DNA of 32,000 nucleotides. Source: Isorropodon fossajaponicum endosymbiont JTNG4. GTDB lineage: Bacteria > Pseudomonadota > Gammaproteobacteria > PS1 > Pseudothioglobaceae. Under the pieces are notes generated by a model, which was given only the letters and a program-made list of their open reading frames with translations, had not been told where the DNA came from and searched no databases. The stretch covers positions 1,200,001 to 1,232,000 of the forward strand of contig NZ_AP013043.1 of NCBI RefSeq assembly GCF_016592615.1, in the 5' to 3' direction. Position 1 is the first letter of the stretch; every line of letters starts with the position of its first letter. Below are positions 3,020 to 13,468 of the stretch, one piece after another. A program made the position numbers and the translations under genes.

Positions 3020-4224
3020 TAAAACTCAATGCCTTCAATTTGTGCAATGGTATGGATATCTTTATCACCACGACCTGAAAGGTTAATAATGATATGTTTA
3101 TCTTTGCCTAATTCTTTTGCAAGCTTAATGCCATAAGCCACAGCGTGAGAAGATTCTAGTGCCGGCAAAATGCCTTCAATTTTGGTGAGCGTATGGAATG
3201 CCTCTAATGCCTCTTCATCAGTAATTGCCACGTATTGCACACGACCACTGTCTTTTAAATAGGCATGTTCTGGGCCAACACCAGGATAATCCAGACCTGC
3301 TGAAATTGAATGCCCCTCAATAATTTGCCCGTTTTCATCTTCCATTAAATAAGTGCGATTACCGTGTAAAACACCCACACTGCCTGCACAAAGTGGGGCA
3401 GCATGTGCAGTTGGACCTTTTTCTAAGCCATATCCTGCCGCCTCAACACCATAAATTTCAACTGAGGCGTCATCAATAAATGCATGGAACAAACCAATTG
3501 CATTTGAACCGCCACCCACACAAGCCACTAAAGCATCAGGCAAGCCACCCACTTGCGTGTTAAATTGTGCTTTTGCTTCTTTGCCAATAATGCTTTGAAA
3601 ATCTCGCACCATCATTGGGTAAGGGTGCGGGCCTGCGACTGTACCAATAATATAAAAGGTATCATCAATATTTGTCACCCAATCGCGCATCGCTTCATTA
3701 AGTGAGTCTTTGAGTGTTTTTGAGCCTGAAGTAACTGGAATAACCGTGGCACCTAACAATTTCATGCGAAACACATTGAGTGCTTGGCGAGCCACATCCA
3801 CCTCGCCCATATAAACTACACATTCTAGCCTCAAACGTGCTGCAACCGTTGCCGTTGCCACGCCATGCTGACCAGCACCTGTTTCAGCAATGATGCGTGT
3901 TTTACCCATGCGCTTAGCAAGTAGCGCTTGACCAATGGTGTTGTTAATTTTATGTGCACCCGTATGATTTAAATCTTCACGTTTAAGATAAATCTGGGCA
4001 CCACCTAGCTTCTTACTTAAATTTTGTGCATGGTAAAGTGGCGTTTCACGACCTACATAATGCTTTAAATCCTGCTCAAACTCATGAATAAAATCCTTAT
4101 CATCTTTATATTTAGCATAAGCATCTTTGAGTTCAGTAACGGCTGTCATGAGTGTTTCTGCAATGAAAACACCACCATATTGCTCAAAATGACCTTTATC
4201 GTCTGGTAAATTGTAATTACTCAT
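3019..4224 (-). CDS. trpB: Tryptophan synthase beta chain
   Basis: Full-length 401 aa with hallmark motifs ([16 protein letters not shown] containing the PLP lysine, [33 protein letters not shown]). Confidence 0.97.
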
Positions 4225-5384
4225 ATTTTGGGAATGGTTTTTTTAATAATTGTAAATAGGACTTAAAAGCGAAAAGACGATTACGCTTGTTGCCCGTTAA
4301 CTCATTTAAAACATCAACTCTAACCAAATCATCAACGATATTTTTAGCAGTTGTTGCAGACACTGATAACTCTATCTTAACATCTTCCACCCTGACAAAT
4401 GGGGTTTCAAATAATTTTTCAAACATTTTTATATTATTGACCGACCTAGGAGCCAGTTTTTTCTTGAATTTTTTCACTCAGGCTTTCCTTAGGCTCTAAA
4501 GTTTCTATTAAAACGCCAACACTATGTTTGGTCGTTATTTCCACACCCTTAAGGAAAAATAATAACCAGCCCAACAAGTCATCCTTCATTCTAACTTGCA
4601 TCAGCCTTTGATAGTATTCATCCTTATTAGCTTCAAAAAATGCTGACATATAAAGCAAGGGCTTTGATAAGAGTTTTTTATCAACTAAATATAGTGGTAT
4701 TAGCATTCTACCAATTCTACCATTACCATCACAAAAAGGATGAATGGTCTCAAATTGATAATGAATAATAGCAATTTTTATTATTTTTGGAATGGCGATT
4801 TTATTATTTAGAAATTTTTCTAAATCTGACATCAGTTCATATACATCGTCTTGATGCGGTGGAATAAAATCAGCATTCTGAATACTACTTCCACCAATCC
4901 AATTTTGTGAAGTACGAAACTCTCCTGATAGTTTTTGCTTGCCCCTTCCTGATGATAGTAGTGTTGCATGTGCCTGTTGAATTAAACGCATGCAAATTGG
5001 TAGTTTATTTAGATTATTAATGGCACTTCGCACTGCGTTTATATAAAGAGTGACTTCGAGCCAATCATCTCTTTGCTCTATTTTAATGCCCTCCTCTTTT
5101 TTAAATGAATCCTCAATTTCAGTTTGTGTGCCTTCTATTTTGCTAGATAAAGTTGCCTCATTACTTATAAAACTCATGATAAACAAATCAATATTCGGCA
5201 CCAATCTTGTCATAGCATTCAATTCACCTAACAAATGGATAGATTTTTCTAACTGTACTTGTAAATTATTATTGCCAACTTCAAATGTGTGATTGATGCC
5301 GTTTGGCAAAAAGCATTGATACTCATGATGTTTTCCATTATTTTTAGATTGAAAGACGCCCGCCTTAAATTTTGATATCTTCAT
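4217..5384 (-). pseudogene. Class II Fic-domain protein (AMPylase family) with C-terminal winged-helix region, split by one frameshift
   Basis: Fic motif HPFCDGNGRIGR at 4707-4742 (minus strand). Auto-inhibitory [S/T]xxxE[G/N] motif SSKIEG at 5130-5147. The 312-aa ORF ends at 4446. The C-terminal wHTH-like part (..SVSATTAKNIVDDLVRVDVLNELTGNKRNRLFAFKSYL..) continues in another frame (4477..4217). The break lies at an A-rich run around 4450-4475. Confidence 0.8.
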
Positions 5385-5458: not shown

Positions 5459-6064
5459 TTATCTCATATTAGCTAAAAATTGTTTAATCTTGTTAATATC
5501 TTTAATACCTTTTGCACTTTCAACACCACTTGACACATCAACTGCATAAGGGTGCACTTGGTTAATAGCATCAGCCACCGTATTAGGGTTAAGCCCGCCC
5601 GCTAAAATAATAGGCAAATTAATATCAACCTTAGCCAAGTGCCAATCAAAATTCTCACCTGTACCGCCATAAATATCTTTGTTAAACGCATCCAATAACA
5701 AACCACTAGCCTGATGATACTCATCTGCCATTTTGGTGATATTAGTCTGCACATTCACACGCAACGCCTTAATAAACGGCATGGCATATTGGACGCACTC
5801 ATGCGCTGTCTCATCGCCATGAAATTGCAAAGTATCCAGTGGCACTTCACACAATACCTCGTCAATAAAGTGAGCGTCCGCATTTACAAACAAGCCCACA
5901 CGATTCACAAAGGGTGGCAATGCACTGACAATATCAATCGCAGTCTCTATATCAACACAACGCGGGGATTTGCCATAAAACACCAAGCCAATTGCATCAA
6001 TACCAAGCATGGCAGCTTGATTAGCATTATCTGCATTGGTGAATCCACAAACCTTAATTTTCAT
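5459..6064 (-). CDS. trpF: N-(5'-phosphoribosyl)anthranilate isomerase
   Basis: 201 aa. MKIKVCGFT..DAIGLVFYGKSPRCV..LQFHGDE..LLDA..GGTGENFDW..ILAGGLNPNTV..VDVSSGVE matches the TrpF TIM-barrel pattern. Confidence 0.93.
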   Translation of the reverse strand: MKIKVCGFTNADNANQAAMLGIDAIGLVFYGKSPRCVDIETAIDIVSALPPFVNRVGLFVNADAHFIDEVLCEVPLDTLQFHGDETAHECVQYAMPFIKALRVNVQTNITKMADEYHQASGLLLDAFNKDIYGGTGENFDWHLAKVDINLPIILAGGLNPNTVADAINQVHPYAVDVSSGVESAKGIKDINKIKQFLANMR

Positions 6065-6771
6065 TACTTACCTTCAGCGTCTAATTTTGCTTTAATCTTA
6101 TCTCTATCAACCCACCAATCATCAGCCACTAACTGATCAACAGCGCCTGAAAGTTTTTTCAAAAACACTTCTGGCTTGTCTAGTTGTAAGGTTTTACGCC
6201 ATAAATCAAACGTTGACTGATCAGTCACATGCGAATGCTCATCCGCAACAGATGCCATCATTTGTGAGGCGAAAAAAGTTAAATCATCATCCACACCACA
6301 GCGCATAGAAGTAATATAATGCGCCGTTGCAGCAGCAATGGCACGAGTATCTGCCTCTTTTGGCAACTCCTCAACCAAATGTTGTAGCATTGCAACAGTC
6401 AATTCTGGGTCAATTGGAAAAGTCACGCCTAACCACAACGCATGACCTAATGCCTTCAAAGCATCTGGCCCTTCGGATAAAAACATCACATCACAGGCCT
6501 CAACTGCCAATTCCCAAAGCTCATTATCTCTCGCGATATCAAAAGCACTAAAGGCCTTTTCCCAAGCATCTGAACCCTTATAACGCTCAACTTGAATCCT
6601 GCCAATCTCTAATAAATTCTTAATTTGTTCCTCAGCAGGCGTATCCTCAGTTTGCGCTTGGATTTGTTTTTCAAAATAATCTAGCCTGGACTGAAGCTGC
6701 TCTTCATTGGCATATAAATCCTCACCACCCTCAGCATCAAAAATCTGCTCTTTATTTAAGTATTTTCCCAT
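6064..6771 (-). CDS. Acidic hypothetical protein (235 aa), co-oriented with and overlapping trpF
   Basis: Long uninterrupted ORF with normal composition. Its stop overlaps the trpF start at 6064. I recognise no motif. Confidence 0.6.
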   Translation of the reverse strand: MGKYLNKEQIFDAEGGEDLYANEEQLQSRLDYFEKQIQAQTEDTPAEEQIKNLLEIGRIQVERYKGSDAWEKAFSAFDIARDNELWELAVEACDVMFLSEGPDALKALGHALWLGVTFPIDPELTVAMLQHLVEELPKEADTRAIAAATAHYITSMRCGVDDDLTFFASQMMASVADEHSHVTDQSTFDLWRKTLQLDKPEVFLKKLSGAVDQLVADDWWVDRDKIKAKLDAEGK

Positions 6772-6781
6772 CAGCTATCTC

Positions 6782-6964
6782 CTAATAAAAGGCCGCTTCT
6801 AAGCGGTCCTCCCAATTATCAGGCACATCCACATAATCAGGCTTCACATCCATCCTAAAAAACCGCTCATCAGATCCCTTAGACACCTGTTTCAAAACCA
6901 CAACCAACGCCTCAAAATTCTCCACTTGAGGATTGGCAATAATCACTTCACTTAACAATAACAT
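6782..6964 (-). CDS. Small hypothetical protein (60 aa)
   Basis: ORF ends 10 nt upstream of the 235-aa ORF on the same strand. No recognisable motif, so coding status is uncertain. Confidence 0.35.
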   Translation of the reverse strand: MLLLSEVIIANPQVENFEALVVVLKQVSKGSDERFFRMDVKPDYVDVPDNWEDRLEAAFY

Positions 6965-7074
6965 AATCTTTTAGTTGTAAAAATCTAGCATTTTACCGCA
7001 CATTCGCATCAACATCTTTATGCTCAATCTTGGTCAAAATACGTAAAGACTTTAATTGTATGGTGTTTTTTAAT

Positions 7075-7351
7075 TCAGCATGTCATGGACTCTAATTGAT
7101 CAGTATATGTATCGCTAAAGAATGTCCAATTTTCTTTAAAATTATTTTCTTCTAATGCATAAGTTAAATTTCTCAACAAGCCTTTACCAAATGCAACACC
7201 GCCTAAACACACTACACTATTTTCTTGGCAAAATTTCTCGATAAAAACTTCCACACGCCTTGCTTGTGGGGTGAACTGCTGTTGCGTCTGTGGTTTCTTT
7301 ATCTTTCGTTCTACTAGCACCATTCAAACAAACAATTTGATAATCATACAT
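7075..7351 (-). pseudogene. Hypothetical gene at the distal end of the RM island, apparently frameshifted
   Basis: A strong RBS (AAGGAG N6) precedes ATG at 7351, giving MYDYQIVCLNGASRTKDKE.. (44 codons). The 82-aa ORF 7323..7075 (..TPQARRVEVFIEKFCQENSVVCLGGVAFGKGLLRNL..) is in a different frame and lacks its own RBS. Function unknown. Confidence 0.3.
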
Positions 7352-7383
7352 AACACACTCCTTTTAATTATTTTTCAAAACCA

Positions 7384-8037
7384 TCATACTTTCTTAAATA
7401 CAAACAAATGCTCATGTTTAATTAACAAAAAATTATAATCTTTACTTTTATTAACCCAAAAGCTAGTTGCCTTGCAATTATGCTGATGTTTGATAATATC
7501 TTCTTTTAATTCAAACCCCGCATTAAAAAATCTTTGCATGACCTTAAACGCCAAAGGCTGGCACATTTTATTACGCCTAGTATCCCAACTAAAATAGCAC
7601 AGTATTTACCACGCTTCAACACCCGATAAAATTCTTTTGCAGCTTTTTCCATCTCATCACAAAACACATCAAAATTATGAATATATGGACAAATCCCTAC
7701 TATCGTTAATTCTTATTTTTATAGTTGGATTAAATTCACTCTCAAAATCAAGCGCAGTTTCTGTAATTTGGATTGCGTTTGGATTTATATCTAACGCCAA
7801 TAAATTCCTATTTAATAGTTTGCACTCTATAGCAGTTGTGCCACCACCAATCATAGGGTCAAGTAAATAATCACCTTGTTTTGAATACCTTAAAATTAAA
7901 TTTCTAACAACTTCTGGCGCCCAATTCCCCCTATATGTGCTTTTATGGGTTGCCCAATTCCCACGCCGAGGAAAACTCCATACTGTGGCACATTCTTGTT
8001 CAAAACCCTCAGGATTAAGTTTTTTTATTTTTGGCAT
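7384..8037 (-). pseudogene. N4/N6-type DNA methyltransferase (SAM-binding motif first), catalytic-motif region lost and frameshifted
   Basis: 8037..7675 encodes ..VWSFPRRGNWATHKSTYRGNWAPEVVRNLILRYSKQGDYLLDPMIGGGTTAIECKLLNRNLLALDINP.. (SAM motif DPMxGGGTT) and stops after ..INDSRDLSIYS. A second frame reads HNFDVFCDEMEKAAKEFYRVLKRGKYCAILVG. After a further 1-nt shift in a GGG run, 7566..7384 reads MCQPLAFKVMQRFFNAGFELKEDIIKHQHN..LFVFKKV. I found no (D/N/S/H)PPY catalytic motif between ..DSRDLS.. and ..FCDEMEK.., where related enzymes carry it. Confidence 0.65.
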
Positions 8038-8239
8038 CGTTCAAGTAGTCTCTATGTTTCAAAGTAGCAGATACTTCTAACTCTAAATAATCCAAAATCT
8101 TTTTTAAAGTCTTGTTATTTAGATTATAGCTTTTGATTGCTTGATAAAAATGCGCCCTTTCAAGTCCTAACGCCTTATAAACTTCACTAGGTTTCACGTC
8201 TCTTTTTATCAATTCAATCTTAATATCTTTCTCAAACAT
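8015..8239 (-). CDS. Small HTH DNA-binding protein (XRE/controller-like), 74 aa
   Basis: ..VKPSEVYKALGLERAHFYQAIKSYNLNNKTLKKILDYL.. looks like a helix-turn-helix. The ATG is 2 nt after the endonuclease stop. The 3' end overlaps the methylase start by 23 nt. Confidence 0.5.
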   Translation of the reverse strand: MFEKDIKIELIKRDVKPSEVYKALGLERAHFYQAIKSYNLNNKTLKKILDYLELEVSATLKHRDYLNDAKNKKT

Positions 8240-8241
8240 GA

Positions 8242-9153
8242 TTATAACCTAATTTTTATTATTGTAAATAAAATAATATACAAAAGATATAAAATTAAAT
8301 ACAACATATTTAAATTGATAACATGGTCATTGTGATTAAAAGTTTCTTCCAAAGGGTTGAGCGCTGTCAACCACCCCCTACCATCAGTAATCCAATTAAA
8401 ATTTAAACCTTGTGATTTAACAAAATCATTCAATGCTTGATATTCACCCGCAGTTGCTTTTAATTTAGATCCGCCGCCATAATAATTGACTTCAATTAGA
8501 TATAATTTTCTATTCTGTTCATTATATAAGGCAAAATCAAATCGACGATTATTTTTATCAATTCTAATTTCATAATCAAACATTGCTTTAATGCTTGCTT
8601 GTGTTGCTTGTTCTATGTAGCTAAAATTGTTATTTTCACTACAAAAATCTTGCAAATATTGAGATACAATACCCTCCATTAATTTGCCCGTTCTACCCTT
8701 CCTTGCATTGGTATCAAAACCAACCTCTACACCAAAACAATAATCTACTAAATTTTTAACGTGTTTATTTATAAAAATTTCTTTTAAACCGCTTTCATTA
8801 AAAAAGATCAACAACTCTTTTTTAATTTTTTCATCAATAGCGTTATAGAAAATATACGACTTATTCTCAGAGATTAATTCATCCACATCTGAAACAATCG
8901 GTGTATCTTGAAGCTTATTTTTTCTAGTAGCGATTAAAAGCGGTAATGCCTTCCTGATATTTGGATATTGTTTTATCAATGATATAAACTCACTTTCTAT
9001 ATCGTCTTTCCCAATCAAACTATTTAAAATATTAAGTTCCACATCGACTTTTGCAACATTTAATTTGACCTTGCTAAAGTCTGTGAAATAACTCCATGTA
9101 AATATTGAGTCTTGGAATGTAGTTTTTAAATCATTAAAATCGTACATTTTCAT
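8242..9153 (-). CDS. Type II restriction endonuclease, DpnII/MboI family (GATC-recognising family)
   Basis: 303-aa uninterrupted ORF, collinear with my recollection of DpnII (DpnB): ..W(S/T)YFTDF.KV..N....(V/I).LNI(L/M)NSLIG.., ..NLVDY..GVEVG.DTN.RK.RTG..ME.IV..YL.., ..RFDF......LYLIEVN(Y/F)Y...GSKL..TA..Y.., ..WITDG.GW... The last ~22 residues (YLILYLLYIILFTIIKIRL) are an unusual hydrophobic, AT-driven tail. Confidence 0.85.
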   Translation of the reverse strand: MKMYDFNDLKTTFQDSIFTWSYFTDFSKVKLNVAKVDVELNILNSLIGKDDIESEFISLIKQYPNIRKALPLLIATRKNKLQDTPIVSDVDELISENKSYIFYNAIDEKIKKELLIFFNESGLKEIFINKHVKNLVDYCFGVEVGFDTNARKGRTGKLMEGIVSQYLQDFCSENNNFSYIEQATQASIKAMFDYEIRIDKNNRRFDFALYNEQNRKLYLIEVNYYGGGSKLKATAGEYQALNDFVKSQGLNFNWITDGRGWLTALNPLEETFNHNDHVINLNMLYLILYLLYIILFTIIKIRL

Positions 9154-9481
9154 CTATCTTATTTTTAAACATCGCCCTTCCAGAAAAACTCCAATAAGTT
9201 ATGTCTTGCTCTATAAATAGCCATTTTATAGTCTTTAATAATGTTTCATATTCAACGCTGCCAATGTAGCAATTTTTTAATAGTGCAAATTTCCCATCTT
9301 TTAAAATTTTGCTAGGACCTTCACAATTGTAAATTTTCTCTACAGCCTCACCCATTAAAACAGAGTATTCTTGATTTTGCTGATTAATGGCTTGTAATTC
9401 TAAATACACACTGTCATGTCGTCTTGGGGTTATTGTTTCTCTTTTAGGGTTCTTTTCTGTTGGTGCTTTGAAACTGTACAT
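9134..9481 (-). CDS. Uncharacterised 115-aa ORF between the methylase remnant and the endonuclease
   Basis: It starts in the A8 run where the Dam frame breaks and overlaps the endonuclease start by 20 nt. The sequence (..EYSVLMGEAVEKIYNCEGPSKILKDGKFALLKNCYIGSVEYETLLKTIKWLFIEQDITYWSFSGR..) does not resemble the expected Dam C-terminus (SNS..ELY..R.I..). Coding status and function are unknown. Confidence 0.35.
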   Translation of the reverse strand: MYSFKAPTEKNPKRETITPRRHDSVYLELQAINQQNQEYSVLMGEAVEKIYNCEGPSKILKDGKFALLKNCYIGSVEYETLLKTIKWLFIEQDITYWSFSGRAMFKNKIDENVRF

Positions 9482-10203
9482 TTTTTTTGATGTAGTTTTT
9501 TAAACATATCAAACAACTGTTTTTGTTTTTCGTCTAAAAAAGCATTTTTATCGTAAGCAGTAAAACTGACAGTTTCAGTCAGTGGATAGTAAGGCGGATC
9601 AAGGTAAACAAAATCATTTGAATTTGCGTTGTCTATTGTCTTATCAAACGATTGGTTAGTAATAACGGCATTTTGCAATGCCTCACGGGCATTTAAAATT
9701 ACTTCTTTATCGGCAATATTTGGATTTTTATAACTGCCTATTGGCTATTGGCGCGTATTAAAATAACCTTTTGAGTTGACACGGTAAAGTCCGTTAAAAT
9801 AAGTCTTATTAAGGTAAATAAATCGTGCAGCTCTCACTAATTCTGTCAGTGTTTTAAAAATATCCCGCCTATCTAGTTCTCTAGTTTGATAATAAAACTC
9901 TTTATTATGGCTGTTCTTATAATATTCTAATTCAGTTATTAGCTTTTTAGGGCTACTTTTAACCACACTATAGGCATTAATAAGTTCTGAATTTATATCA
10001 GAAAGATATGCCTTTTTACCTTTTAGCATCCCCCTTGAATAAAGTTTAAAAAATACCGCACCACCACCTAAAAATGGCTCATGATAGTTATTAAAATCAG
10101 TGGGAAATTTGTCAAATAATTGTGTTATTAACCCTCTTTTCCCGCCTGCCCATTTTAAAAATGGCTTGGCTTGAGATTGAAGGGTGTTTTTAGAGATTGG
10201 CAT
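9430..10203 (-). pseudogene. Dam/DpnM-like N6-adenine DNA methyltransferase (alpha class), in-frame stop plus lost C-terminus
   Basis: N-terminal part: ..KPFLKWAGGKR..YHEPFLGGGAVFF..LSDINSELINAY..ARFIYLNKTYFNGLYRVNSKGYFN.. The next codons read TRQ and then TAG at 9745-9747. The same frame continues PIGSYKNPNIADKE..FVYLDPPYYPL (DPPY at 9589-9600) ..FTAYDKNAF..LFDMFKKLHQKK, then breaks at the A8 run (~9481-9488). The usual SNS..ELY.. C-terminal region is not found. Confidence 0.85.
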
Positions 10204-10258
10204 AATTCATAATTAAAAACTAAAAGACACAAAGTGTTTTTAATTTTAATTAAATACT

Positions 10259-12595
10259 CTACCTTTTGGTAACTTTTTTCTTAACTGTCTTCTTTTTGAC
10301 TTTAGGCTTGAGTTTTCCAGTAACCGCTTTTTTACATTCTTCAAGAGTTAGGTCTGCCGGGGCTTTATCGCCGAAGACTTTTTTGATGGTGATGTTTTTT
10401 TGACCTTTGCTTTTTTTCTTGCCGTTCCAAATGTAGGGGCCAAAACGGCCGTTGAGGACTTGGATGTCGGAGTCATCGAAGGCTTTGATGATGCGTTCGG
10501 CGTCGAATTTTTCTTTAGCTTTAATGAGTTCTAGTGCTTTTTCTAAGCTGACTTCTTCTGGGGTATCTTCCTTGAGTGCGACGTATTTCTTGCCATATTG
10601 GATATAGGGACCAAAGCGACCATAGTTGGCTTTAATGGTGCCAAAATCATCAGTCTCGCCGACGGTGCGAGGCATGTTAAATAATTCTAAAGCCTCATCA
10701 AGAGTAATGCTTTCAATGTCTAATGAGCCTCTGAGTGAGGCAAAGGCTGGCTTGTCTTTGTCGTCTTTATGGCCGATTTGGGCAAAAGCACCGTATCTGC
10801 CGAAACGCACGCTAACAGGTTTGCCACTTTTTGGGTCTGTGCCGAGTTCGCGCATGCCGTGGGTTTCTTCTCTGGAAATGTCAGCAGCGTCTTCAATTTT
10901 TTGATGAAAAGGGGTGTAAAAATTCTTAACTACGCCTTGCCACGGGACATTTTGTGTGGCAATGGTGTCAAAATCACTTTCAAGTTTGGCAGTGAATTTA
11001 TAATCAATGATGTTGTCAAAATATTTGACTAGAAAATCGGTGAGTAAATAGGCAACATTGGTTGGGAACAATTTGTTTTTTTCAGCGCCTGTTACTTCGC
11101 TTGGCTGTGATTGAATGACCTGGTTGTCTTTGATTTCAATCAGTTGATACGCACGTTCAACACCTTCTCTGGTCTCTTTTGTGACGTAATTTCTGTCTTG
11201 CACTGTCGATACCATAGTGGCGAATGTTGAAGGCCTACCGATACCCATTTCCTCAATTTTTTTCACTAGCGAAGCTTCAGTGTAGCGAGGTTTAGCTCTT
11301 GAAAAGCTCTCTCTGGCTTTAAAACTAGCCAAACTCAATATATCGCCTTTGTTTAAATCGGGCAATAATTTATCCTCTGACGATAGATAATCATAAACTC
11401 TTAAAAACCCTGGAAATGTCAATATTTCGCCATTAGCTAGGAATTTTTCCTCAAGCCCTGAAATGTTGATTTTTATTTGGGTTTTTTGTAATTGAGCGTC
11501 GCTCATTTGGCAAGCCAATGTGCGTTTGTAAATAAGGCTATATAATTTAGCAGCCTGATCTTCAATACCAAAAATACTAGGCTTGGTTAAATCAGTTGGG
11601 CGAATTGCCTCATGCGCTTCTTGTGCACCTGTATCTTTGGTTTTATATCGTCTTATGTGGTGATAGTCACTGCCAAATTCTTTTGCAATGACTTGACCGG
11701 CTGCCTCAATGGCTATTTCTGACAGCGTGAATGAATCAGTTCGCATGTAAGTAATAGAGCCTTCACGGTACAAATTTTGTGCCAAAGTCATGGTTTGCTT
11801 AACCGAAAAGCCTAATTTTTGAGAGGCTTCTTGTTGCAAGGTTGAGGTAATAAAGGGGGGCTTTGATGAGCGTTTAGAGGGTTTTTTCTCAGTTGATGCA
11901 ACGGTTAAATTAGCCGATAAAAGCGCATTAGCAAAGGCTAATGCCTGCTCTTTAGATTCAAACTCTTTGCTCAGTTTAACCTCAGACATCTCGCCACCTT
12001 CACTCACCAACTCTGCTTTGACTTTGTAAGTAGAATTGGTAATATGTTGGCTAATTTCTCGCTCTCTTTCGACCACGAGGCGCATCACTGGGGATTGCAC
12101 CCTGCCAGCAGAACGCGCGCCTGAAATCTTGCGCCATAGAACAGGCGATATTTCAAAACCTACCAATCTGTCAATAATGCGGCGTGCTTGTTGAGCATCT
12201 ACCAACTGATAATCAACCGTTCTAGGCTTAACAATGGCGTTAGTAATAGCACTTTTGGTAATCTCATGAAAGACAATTCTTGGGGTGTCTTTGGGCAAAT
12301 TGAGTGCTTCTAGTAAATGCCAAGCAATAGCCTCACCTTCGCGATCCTCGTCCGTTGCGAGATAGACTTTTTCTGCTACTTTTACGGCCTTGCGCAAATC
12401 AGCGACTACTTTTTTCTTATCCGTGGTAATTTCATAGGTGGGGATAAAATTGTTTTCAATGTCAATGCCCATGTTTTTCTTGGGCATGTCACGGATGTGA
12501 CCAATACTAGATTTAACGCTAAAGTCCTTACCTAAAAACTTTCCAATGGTTTTAGCTTTGGCAGGGGACTCAACAATAACAAGATTTTTTGCCAT
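10259..12595 (-). CDS. topA: DNA topoisomerase I
   Basis: 778 aa. Toprim N-terminus (LVIVESPAKAKTIGKFLG, ATDEDREGEAIAWHL), the active-site region ITYMRTDS, and a lysine-rich C-terminal tail. Confidence 0.97.
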   Translation of the reverse strand: MAKNLVIVESPAKAKTIGKFLGKDFSVKSSIGHIRDMPKKNMGIDIENNFIPTYEITTDKKKVVADLRKAVKVAEKVYLATDEDREGEAIAWHLLEALNLPKDTPRIVFHEITKSAITNAIVKPRTVDYQLVDAQQARRIIDRLVGFEISPVLWRKISGARSAGRVQSPVMRLVVEREREISQHITNSTYKVKAELVSEGGEMSEVKLSKEFESKEQALAFANALLSANLTVASTEKKPSKRSSKPPFITSTLQQEASQKLGFSVKQTMTLAQNLYREGSITYMRTDSFTLSEIAIEAAGQVIAKEFGSDYHHIRRYKTKDTGAQEAHEAIRPTDLTKPSIFGIEDQAAKLYSLIYKRTLACQMSDAQLQKTQIKINISGLEEKFLANGEILTFPGFLRVYDYLSSEDKLLPDLNKGDILSLASFKARESFSRAKPRYTEASLVKKIEEMGIGRPSTFATMVSTVQDRNYVTKETREGVERAYQLIEIKDNQVIQSQPSEVTGAEKNKLFPTNVAYLLTDFLVKYFDNIIDYKFTAKLESDFDTIATQNVPWQGVVKNFYTPFHQKIEDAADISREETHGMRELGTDPKSGKPVSVRFGRYGAFAQIGHKDDKDKPAFASLRGSLDIESITLDEALELFNMPRTVGETDDFGTIKANYGRFGPYIQYGKKYVALKEDTPEEVSLEKALELIKAKEKFDAERIIKAFDDSDIQVLNGRFGPYIWNGKKKSKGQKNITIKKVFGDKAPADLTLEECKKAVTGKLKPKVKKKTVKKKVTKR

Positions 12596-13093: not shown

Positions 13094-13468
13094 TCACTTA
13101 GTTAGTACGTAGCCTGATCCTGTCATTTTAGCCACCTTGTTTTCAAGCTCAAGTAATAAAAGCGCTTGGGTAATTATCTGTGGGCTAAGGTTGGTTTTTT
13201 CAACCAGCTTATCAACCGTCACCGCATTATAACTCAGACATTTTAATAGCATAGCATCTGTTTTATCTACATTTTTTGCATAAGTAGCTTCTTTTTTAAG
13301 TAAAACCGACAAGCCTAGCCCTTTGGGTAGCTCGGATAATATATCTTCAATATTGTCAGTTAGCTTAGAACCTTGCTTAATAAGTTGATGGTAGCCCTTT
13401 GATAATGGATTGTGAATTGAACTAGGTATTGTAGCATTTTTTAAATATGGGTATAAAAAACGATGCAA
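13094..13468 (-). pseudogene. dprA: DprA/Smf remnant (C-terminal ~110 codons only)
   Basis: ..ATIPSSIHNPLSKGYHQLIKQGSKLTDNIEDILSEL.. matches the DprA region (F)AIPGSI.NP.S.G.H.LIKQGAKLV...DIL.EL, followed by the C-terminal wHTH-like domain. An in-frame stop lies at 13478-13480. Only ~85 bp separate it from rpmH, so the ~250 N-terminal codons are absent. Confidence 0.75.

Follow-up and report, generated by a model that had tools for sequence, protein, structure and literature searches.

The stretch of DNA analysed here, which we call the window, comprises 32,000 nucleotides from the genome of the sulfur-oxidising symbiont that lives in the gills of Isorropodon fossajaponicum, a deep-sea vesicomyid clam. 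Our subject is a restriction-modification (R-M) island of the DpnII/MboI family on the minus strand of this window, at positions 7075-10203, and in particular the state of its restriction nuclease. A sequence-only reading of the same DNA had reported six co-directional frames in this interval, with the nuclease as the only intact gene beside two broken methylases. An open reading frame (ORF) map of positions 6000-11500 recovers these minus-strand frames, and Pfam and NCBIfam profiles bear out the assignment of their products to the Dam, DpnII and N6/N4 methylase families. The island is flanked by dprA-smg-topA on one side and by a 60-aa gene (s60), a 235-aa gene (p235) and trpF on the other. 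Its ancestral order is a Dam-type methylase, p204, the DpnII-family nuclease, a 74-aa protein with a weak helix-turn-helix (HTH), an N6/N4-type methylase (M2) and s91, which is the methylase-(x)-nuclease-(HTH)-methylase layout that had been proposed. Both methylase genes are indeed dead in the window, and with no intact cognate methylase the locus is not a functional type II R-M system. The intactness of the nuclease is another matter, as the comparisons below make apparent. A literature search found no paper describing the island or the genome.

The same island occupies the same site, between topA and the 60-aa gene, in five reference loci: L001 (a 1.07-Mb ENA contig), L003-L005 (Ca. Thiodubiliella endoseptemdiera) and L006 (Ca. 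Ruthturnera sp. Tsphm01, CP125320.1). The last of these is the closest genome that we found, its 235-aa flank protein being 99% identical to that of the window, and the DNA identity between the two is about 90% from dprA to Dam and 91-93% over the island outside Dam. In L006 the island consists of six uninterrupted genes, encoding Dam (286 aa), p204 (204 aa), the nuclease (293 aa), the HTH protein (74 aa), M2 (250 aa) and s91 (91 aa). Since that island is intact at the same site, the polarity of the changes is clear and every lesion dates to the window lineage.

Lesions were mapped on a DNA alignment of the window with L006, and the alignments with L001 and L003 give the same picture. Nine indels fall within the 3,660-nt island. 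These are a 9-nt insertion in Dam, a 419-nt deletion spanning Dam and p204, a 3-nt insertion in p204, deletions of 3 and 26 nt in the nuclease gene, deletions of 95 nt and 1 nt in M2, and a 1-nt insertion and a 6-nt deletion in s91. The body of topA, s60 and p235 have no indel in the same alignment. The lesions are spread evenly over the island, and the nuclease, which makes up 24% of its length, holds two of the nine, where 2.2 would be expected from length; the 74-aa HTH gene alone among the six has none. Short repeats or microhomologies are found at the deletion junctions, for example a (TGG)4 repeat at the 3-nt loss and an A-rich/TACA stretch at the 419-nt loss, and the lesions thus look like real slippage deletions. 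The 26-nt and 419-nt junctions have no exact match in the metagenome contigs, which give these alleles no independent support.

The nuclease ORF (8242-9153) matches the DpnII profile PF04556 with an E-value of 5.8e-85, residues 6-284 aligning with positions 2-271 of the 278 in the profile. Its native part, residues 1-283, is encoded at 8305..9153 on the minus strand and is recognised by PADLOC as REase_II (E 1e-88). It aligns over about 266 residues with the nuclease of the Lactococcus lactis plasmid pSRQ700, at 42.8% identity (E 7e-68). This frame had been read as free of any frameshift, but the alignments with L001-L004 and L006 reveal a 26-nt deletion at 8305|8304, which removes the codons for LKNNTLKD together with two bases, shifts the frame and leaves the native stop out of frame. 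Because of this frameshifting deletion, the 20-residue hydrophobic tail LYLILYLLYIILFTIIKIRL (8242..8304, minus strand), which had been singled out as odd, is translated non-coding DNA. Residues 284-303 come from the out-of-frame 3' end of the gene and the spacer between the nuclease and HTH genes, running to the TAA at 8242-8244, and they replace the 11 native residues LKNNTLKDICI. No such C-terminal tail occurs in any of 119 homologues that are at least 70% identical. The C-terminal pattern MLK...L.D(I/L) is kept even in the pSRQ700 enzyme, and the window nuclease has lost it where ..NLxMLKxxxLxxI.. would be expected.

The second deletion in the nuclease gene, of 3 nt at about 8480, lies in the (TGG)4 repeat and takes one glycine out of NYYGGGGSKLK. 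The 12-residue block NYYGGGGSKLKA, identical in the L006 and pSRQ700 nucleases despite an overall identity of only 42%, is thereby one residue shorter in the window. It is bordered by the E221-V-N223 strand on one side and by K230 and K232 on the other, all of them invariant, and no length variant of the NYY-x4-SKLK block was found in the 119 homologues or in the pSRQ700 enzyme. Among the substitutions unique to the window lineage are N153G, at a position that is asparagine in all 119 homologues, and I253N, at one that is isoleucine in 98% of them and lies in a core beta-strand predicted by AlphaFold2; further substitutions include K259R. A nuclease with two of the nine indels, a lost C-terminus, a codon deleted from a conserved block and these two replacements cannot be called the intact member of the island. 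The L006 nuclease (L006:7492-8373) has changes of its own, N147H (numbered as in L006), where asparagine is found in 119 of 119 homologues, and E179D; although intact-looking, it may itself be attenuated.

Several observations weigh against the nuclease being disabled. Its 283 native codons still stand in an open frame. The residues expected to be catalytic from the PD-(D/E)XK topology, E143, D206, E221, N223, K230 and K232, are all kept. N153 is threonine in the pSRQ700 enzyme, and this position is thus not universally fixed. The terminal branch of the window carries nine synonymous and eight non-synonymous substitutions in the nuclease, similar to the sister lineages; we make no claim of relaxed selection from these counts, as 9 versus 8 gives no signal either way. 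The structural arguments are also weak because the AlphaFold2 model, built on a 56-sequence alignment, is poor (mean predicted local distance difference test score 63, predicted template modelling score 0.44) and confident only in a PD-(D/E)XK-like core at about residues 150-225, and we have used it for secondary structure only. The PD-(D/E)XK fold of the family is itself an assignment taken from the literature (PMC3424549, PMC2441816). A search of PDB sequences with the nuclease returned no relative (best match E 0.7, irrelevant), and Foldseek against the PDB returned nothing at E <= 0.001; its weak top matches are PD-(D/E)XK nucleases (MunI, Card1, AgeI), which agrees with the published fold and proves nothing.

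The loss of the Dam-type methylase is easily followed. The N-terminal fragment (9745..10203, minus strand) matches Pfam MethyltransfD12 over positions 1-132 of 253 (E 7e-31) and TIGR00571 dam (E 6e-41), and it ends at the in-frame TAG at 9745-9747 that had already been noticed. This stop lies within the 9-nt insertion GCGCCAATA (9746-9754), which L001, L003 and L006 lack. The middle part of the gene continues in the same frame at 9466..9744 (minus strand), with its DPPY kept, to the junction of the 419-nt deletion at 9473|9472, and in this single frame tblastn recovers residues 8-242 of the 285 in Dam. The second fragment, at 9430-9678, matches profile positions 155-231 of MethyltransfD12 and TIGR00571 with an E-value of 2e-18, and the motif DPPYYPL is present, with the match being to the D12-class profiles (PF02086, TIGR00571). 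The C-terminus had been thought to be lost at an A8 run; the loss does begin directly past that run, but its cause is the 419-nt deletion and not slippage of the run itself. This deletion removes the final 43 or so codons of Dam and the initial 85 or so of p204. Between the TAG and the lost C-terminus, no uninterrupted full-length Dam frame is left in the window.

What had been listed as orf115 (9134..9481, minus strand) is the 3' remnant of p204, about residues 86-204. Searching by tblastn with the 201-aa protein of L003 recovers residues 86-201 at 79% identity, so that the frame represents roughly the last 115-120 codons of a gene of 201-204 aa, of which L006 has the full 204-aa ORF. The gene sits between Dam and the nuclease in L003-L006, and the remnant has its 3-nt insertion at 9421-9423. 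We dropped orf115 as a separate accessory gene on the evidence of tblastn and the alignment. Neither Pfam nor PADLOC has a family that matches p204. The contents of the slot between Dam and the nuclease vary among relatives. It holds the 201-204-aa protein of no known family in L003-L006 (L003:5415-6020) and, as a remnant, in the window, a 259-aa NOV_C protein in L001 (L001:5277-6056), which matches the PADLOC PDC-S36/TmtA models, and only 31 codons in L002 (L002:5919-6014), a locus that also lacks the HTH gene.

The Dam gene is also a mosaic. Around window positions 9600-10000 (minus strand), a stretch of some 400 nt has just 77-79% identity to L006 but 95-96% to the metagenomic contig L089, the topA of which is more distant. 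Synonymous divergence (dS) in this stretch is 0.61, compared with about 0.2 in the neighbouring genes. This mosaicism points to allelic exchange inside the island before its decay.

The second methylase, M2 (7384..8037, minus strand), survives in three pieces at 7675-8037, 7506-7667 and 7384-7566. The first piece matches Pfam N6_N4_Mtase (PF01555) with an E-value of 1.7e-13, over the C-terminal profile positions 133-220 only; the intact 250-aa protein of L006 is recognised by PADLOC as MTase_II (E 7e-86). The alignments support the observation that the catalytic (N)HPPY motif is missing and that a further 1-nt frameshift follows. A 95-nt deletion at 7685|7684 takes out the NHPPY region, which is present in L001, L003 and L006, and the last piece is brought back into frame by a further loss of 1 nt at 7585|7584. 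A 1-nt insertion at 7252 divides the 91-aa gene s91 (7075..7351, minus strand) between a 44-aa ORF (7217-7351) and the frame previously called orf82 (7075-7323); the 6-nt deletion lies close to the 3' end of the gene. By tblastn, residues 1-36 lie in one frame and 30-91 in another, and in L001 and L006 the 91-aa ORF is uninterrupted. We therefore rejected orf82 as a gene; it is the frameshifted 3' part of s91.

The GATC content of the window is relevant to what an active nuclease would do. GATC sites had been described as plentiful. There are 37 of them in the 32 kb, but the 91.5 expected from a maximal-order Markov model give an observed/expected ratio of 0.40, a 2.5-fold depletion and the second lowest value among the 16 four-base palindromes in the window, where GGCC (0.37) and CCGG (0.46) are also depleted. 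The ratio is 0.21-0.42 in loci of the intact-island lineages versus 0.83-0.90 in two island-free SUP05 loci, these being small samples. The depletion resembles a footprint of restriction avoidance left while the system was still working. Even so, 37 sites are enough to make an active and unprotected cutter lethal.

Some information on timing comes from the ratio of non-synonymous to synonymous substitution rates (dN/dS) between the window and L006, which is 0.15 for the nuclease, 0.12 for M2, 0.155 for Dam and 0.17 for the HTH gene, compared with 0.03-0.08 for the conserved flanks. Since the nuclease has about the same value as the broken M2, the decay is both recent and shared by the whole island. 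Inactivation came after most of the divergence, and the low dN/dS of the nuclease is thus silent on its present function. The open frame reflects past and not continuing selection, and the nuclease is not one that selection has spared.

Decay of this kind is not confined to the island. The window dprA (13097-13429, minus strand) retains only the last 110 or so of 362 codons, that is, the winged-helix domain, and the gene is full-length in L006. The window fic/DOC gene (4220-5384, minus strand) has a frameshift near 4447-4455, and the L003 homologue aligns with one frame over residues 1-307 and with another over residues 309-384. Vesicomyid clam symbionts are known to undergo reductive genome evolution through stepwise gene loss, and genes for DNA repair and recombination have been lost stepwise in this group by small deletions, as described in a paper on nucleotide excision repair genes (PMC5310779). 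The pattern in dprA, fic and the island resembles that of the published pseudogenes, with the difference that the latter are nucleotide excision repair genes.

We favour the view, with a probability of about 0.8, that the island is undergoing neutral decay as a whole in a host-restricted symbiont and that its nuclease is already disabled. In the ancestral state, which Ca. Ruthturnera sp. Tsphm01 preserves, GATC would have been protected by two adenine methylases and cut by the nuclease where unmethylated. Selection on the whole island would then have lapsed in the window lineage, and slippage-type indels would have spread over its genes in proportion to their length. The nuclease would have been disabled by the C-terminal frameshift, by the loss of one residue from its best conserved loop, and by N153G and I253N. 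On present evidence the nuclease is most likely inactive. The GATC activity of the ancestral system is the one expected from the families of its enzymes. The sequence-only reading had seen a puzzle in a lethal orphan nuclease and offered three ways out of it, of which inactivation by point changes or by the odd tail is the best supported. If the nuclease is inactive, the cell survives its 37 window GATC sites without a linked methylase, and the puzzle is gone. We infer that the loss of nuclease function preceded or coincided with that of the last working methylase.

The alternative that survives best, although we consider it unlikely, is that the nuclease tolerates these changes and is still active, with the chromosome protected in trans by an unlinked GATC methylase encoded at another place in the 1.45-Mb genome. 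The open frame, the retained candidate catalytic residues and the dN/dS of 0.15 would all suit such an enzyme, as would the public annotation of the identical protein as an ordinary type II restriction endonuclease; the GATC depletion also fits as a footprint of past restriction, though one dating from the intact state. However, the nuclease matches the dead genes in its number of indels per base, its dN/dS is shared by the broken M2, and the lost C-terminal segment and the loop length are invariant in the 119 homologues and the pSRQ700 enzyme. In addition, the best 120 Dam relatives include no other close Dam from this organism, in a search that a distant Dam would escape. The specific case in which the tail-swapped protein works as a solitary GATC cutter, with an unlinked orphan methylase guarding the chromosome, is a shade less probable again. 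If true, this would be a naturally dismantled R-M system of which a host-restricted symbiont has kept the toxin half.

A silent island is a slimmer prospect still. Here the nuclease would be active if made but never expressed, either because the island as a whole is silent or through polar effects of the upstream lesions. The spacer between topA and Dam is shorter than that of L006 by 11 and 7 nt, two of the lesions, the premature TAG and the 419-nt deletion, precede the nuclease in the same orientation, and the promoter scan found fewer sigma-70-like sites than in shuffled sequences (12 versus 16). Yet this leaves the two indels and two radical substitutions of the nuclease unexplained, and leaky expression of an active GATC cutter would still be harmful. 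It is very improbable that the lesions are sequencing or assembly artefacts in a truly intact island, for although the two single-base indels (7585, 7252) are of the type produced in long-read assembly and no independent contig speaks for or against the deletion junctions, the decisive lesions are deletions of 419, 95 and 26 nt and a 9-nt insertion, which are not homopolymer errors, the microhomology at their junctions is typical of real deletions, and dprA and fic are broken as well.

Comparison with known systems places the island as a decayed member of the DpnII/LlaDCHI/MboI kind. We take pSRQ700 to encode LlaDCHI, which cuts GATC; its database record says only 'type II restriction endonuclease'. 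Like LlaDCHI and the DpnII system of Streptococcus pneumoniae, the island combines a PF04556 nuclease with a Dam-type methylase and a second adenine methylase, and the Dam-type methylase of pSRQ700 shares 42% identity with the intact Dam of L006. In pSRQ700 the Dam methylase, the second methylase and the nuclease are consecutive (M-M-R), whereas the island has the order M-x-R-HTH-M-y with three extra small genes, and in the window, unlike pSRQ700, the system is dead. The intact M2 of L006 aligns with the second methylase of pSRQ700 over 70 residues only, at 34% identity, and has its S-adenosylmethionine-binding motif before NHPPY; M2 is no clear orthologue of DpnA, and its presumed specificity for GATC comes from the context alone. 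MboI of Moraxella bovis has the order methylase-nuclease-methylase. The island shares this arrangement and the GATC family of the enzymes; p204 or the NOV_C protein, the HTH gene and s91 are not known to be part of the MboI system. MboI and DpnII both belong to PF04556 (PMC3424549).

The one gene of the island that is free of indels encodes the 74-aa protein (8015..8239, minus strand), which overlaps the start of M2. Its match to HTH_26 (E 5.7e-4) is below the cutoff of Pfam, it is 88% identical to its counterpart in L001, and the entry closest to it in the PDB (E 0.11) is no C protein; the 74-aa protein may have a regulatory role. A sigma-70-like promoter candidate, TTTACA-16-TATAAT with 11 of 12 matches in the promoter scan, lies in the spacer between the nuclease and HTH genes (8241..8268, minus strand) and now falls inside the extended nuclease ORF. 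Among the relatives, L001 has TTGACA as its -35 (one mismatch) with the same -10, and L003 has both hexamers with a 15-nt spacer. The -10 box stops 1 nt before the annotated HTH start codon, which means that either the HTH gene truly starts further along or the site does not serve as its promoter.

Elsewhere in the group the island is further gone or has been replaced, as in L007, L008 and L024. Only 226 bp of Dam are left in L007, L024 has a truncated Dam and a 121-bp scrap of M2, and the site is empty in Vesicomyosocius (L009) and in most free-living SUP05, the sulfur-oxidising Thioglobaceae; a lone nuclease was found in no surveyed relative. Other genes have been placed between topA and s60 in several of these genomes. 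L024 (L024:6972-9213) has a methyl-dependent nuclease of the DpnI family (PF06044 E 3e-80, with DpnI_C) in place of the DpnII-type genes, and a Pfam scan of a protein of L032 (L032:8010-8783) identifies a PLD-nuclease fused to a DpnI_C methyl-adenine sensor. In L007 (L007:8309-9302) the Dam scrap is followed by a 248-aa ORF that, compared by eye, resembles the fusion of L032. DpnI and DpnII cassettes alternate in Streptococcus pneumoniae, and DpnII-type and DpnI-type cassettes seem to alternate here at one topA-s60 locus. Other cargo includes an 810-aa SIR2+STAND NTPase (L038:7154-9586) and a C5 methylase with a HATPase_c_3 (GHKL ATPase) protein (L017:5774-9094), and a PAPS-reductase-like gene and a metallophosphatase are also found across L038:7154-9586, L017:5774-9094 and L032:4481-9778. 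In a Thiodubiliella assembly (L033:6821-7673) there is a second, frameshifted partial copy of s60/p235 about 3 kb upstream of the intact pair. The topA-s60 interval behaves as a defence-island hotspot in the SUP05 clade, and this hotspot with its alternating cassettes may be of greater interest than the decayed island itself.

What the window offers is a snapshot of a selfish, toxin-antitoxin-like R-M module being dismantled after selection on it has stopped, in which the nuclease has been hit subtly and its frame left open. The database entry for this protein is a 3'-frameshifted relic, and an intact ORF is a poor proxy for a functional nuclease in reduced genomes.

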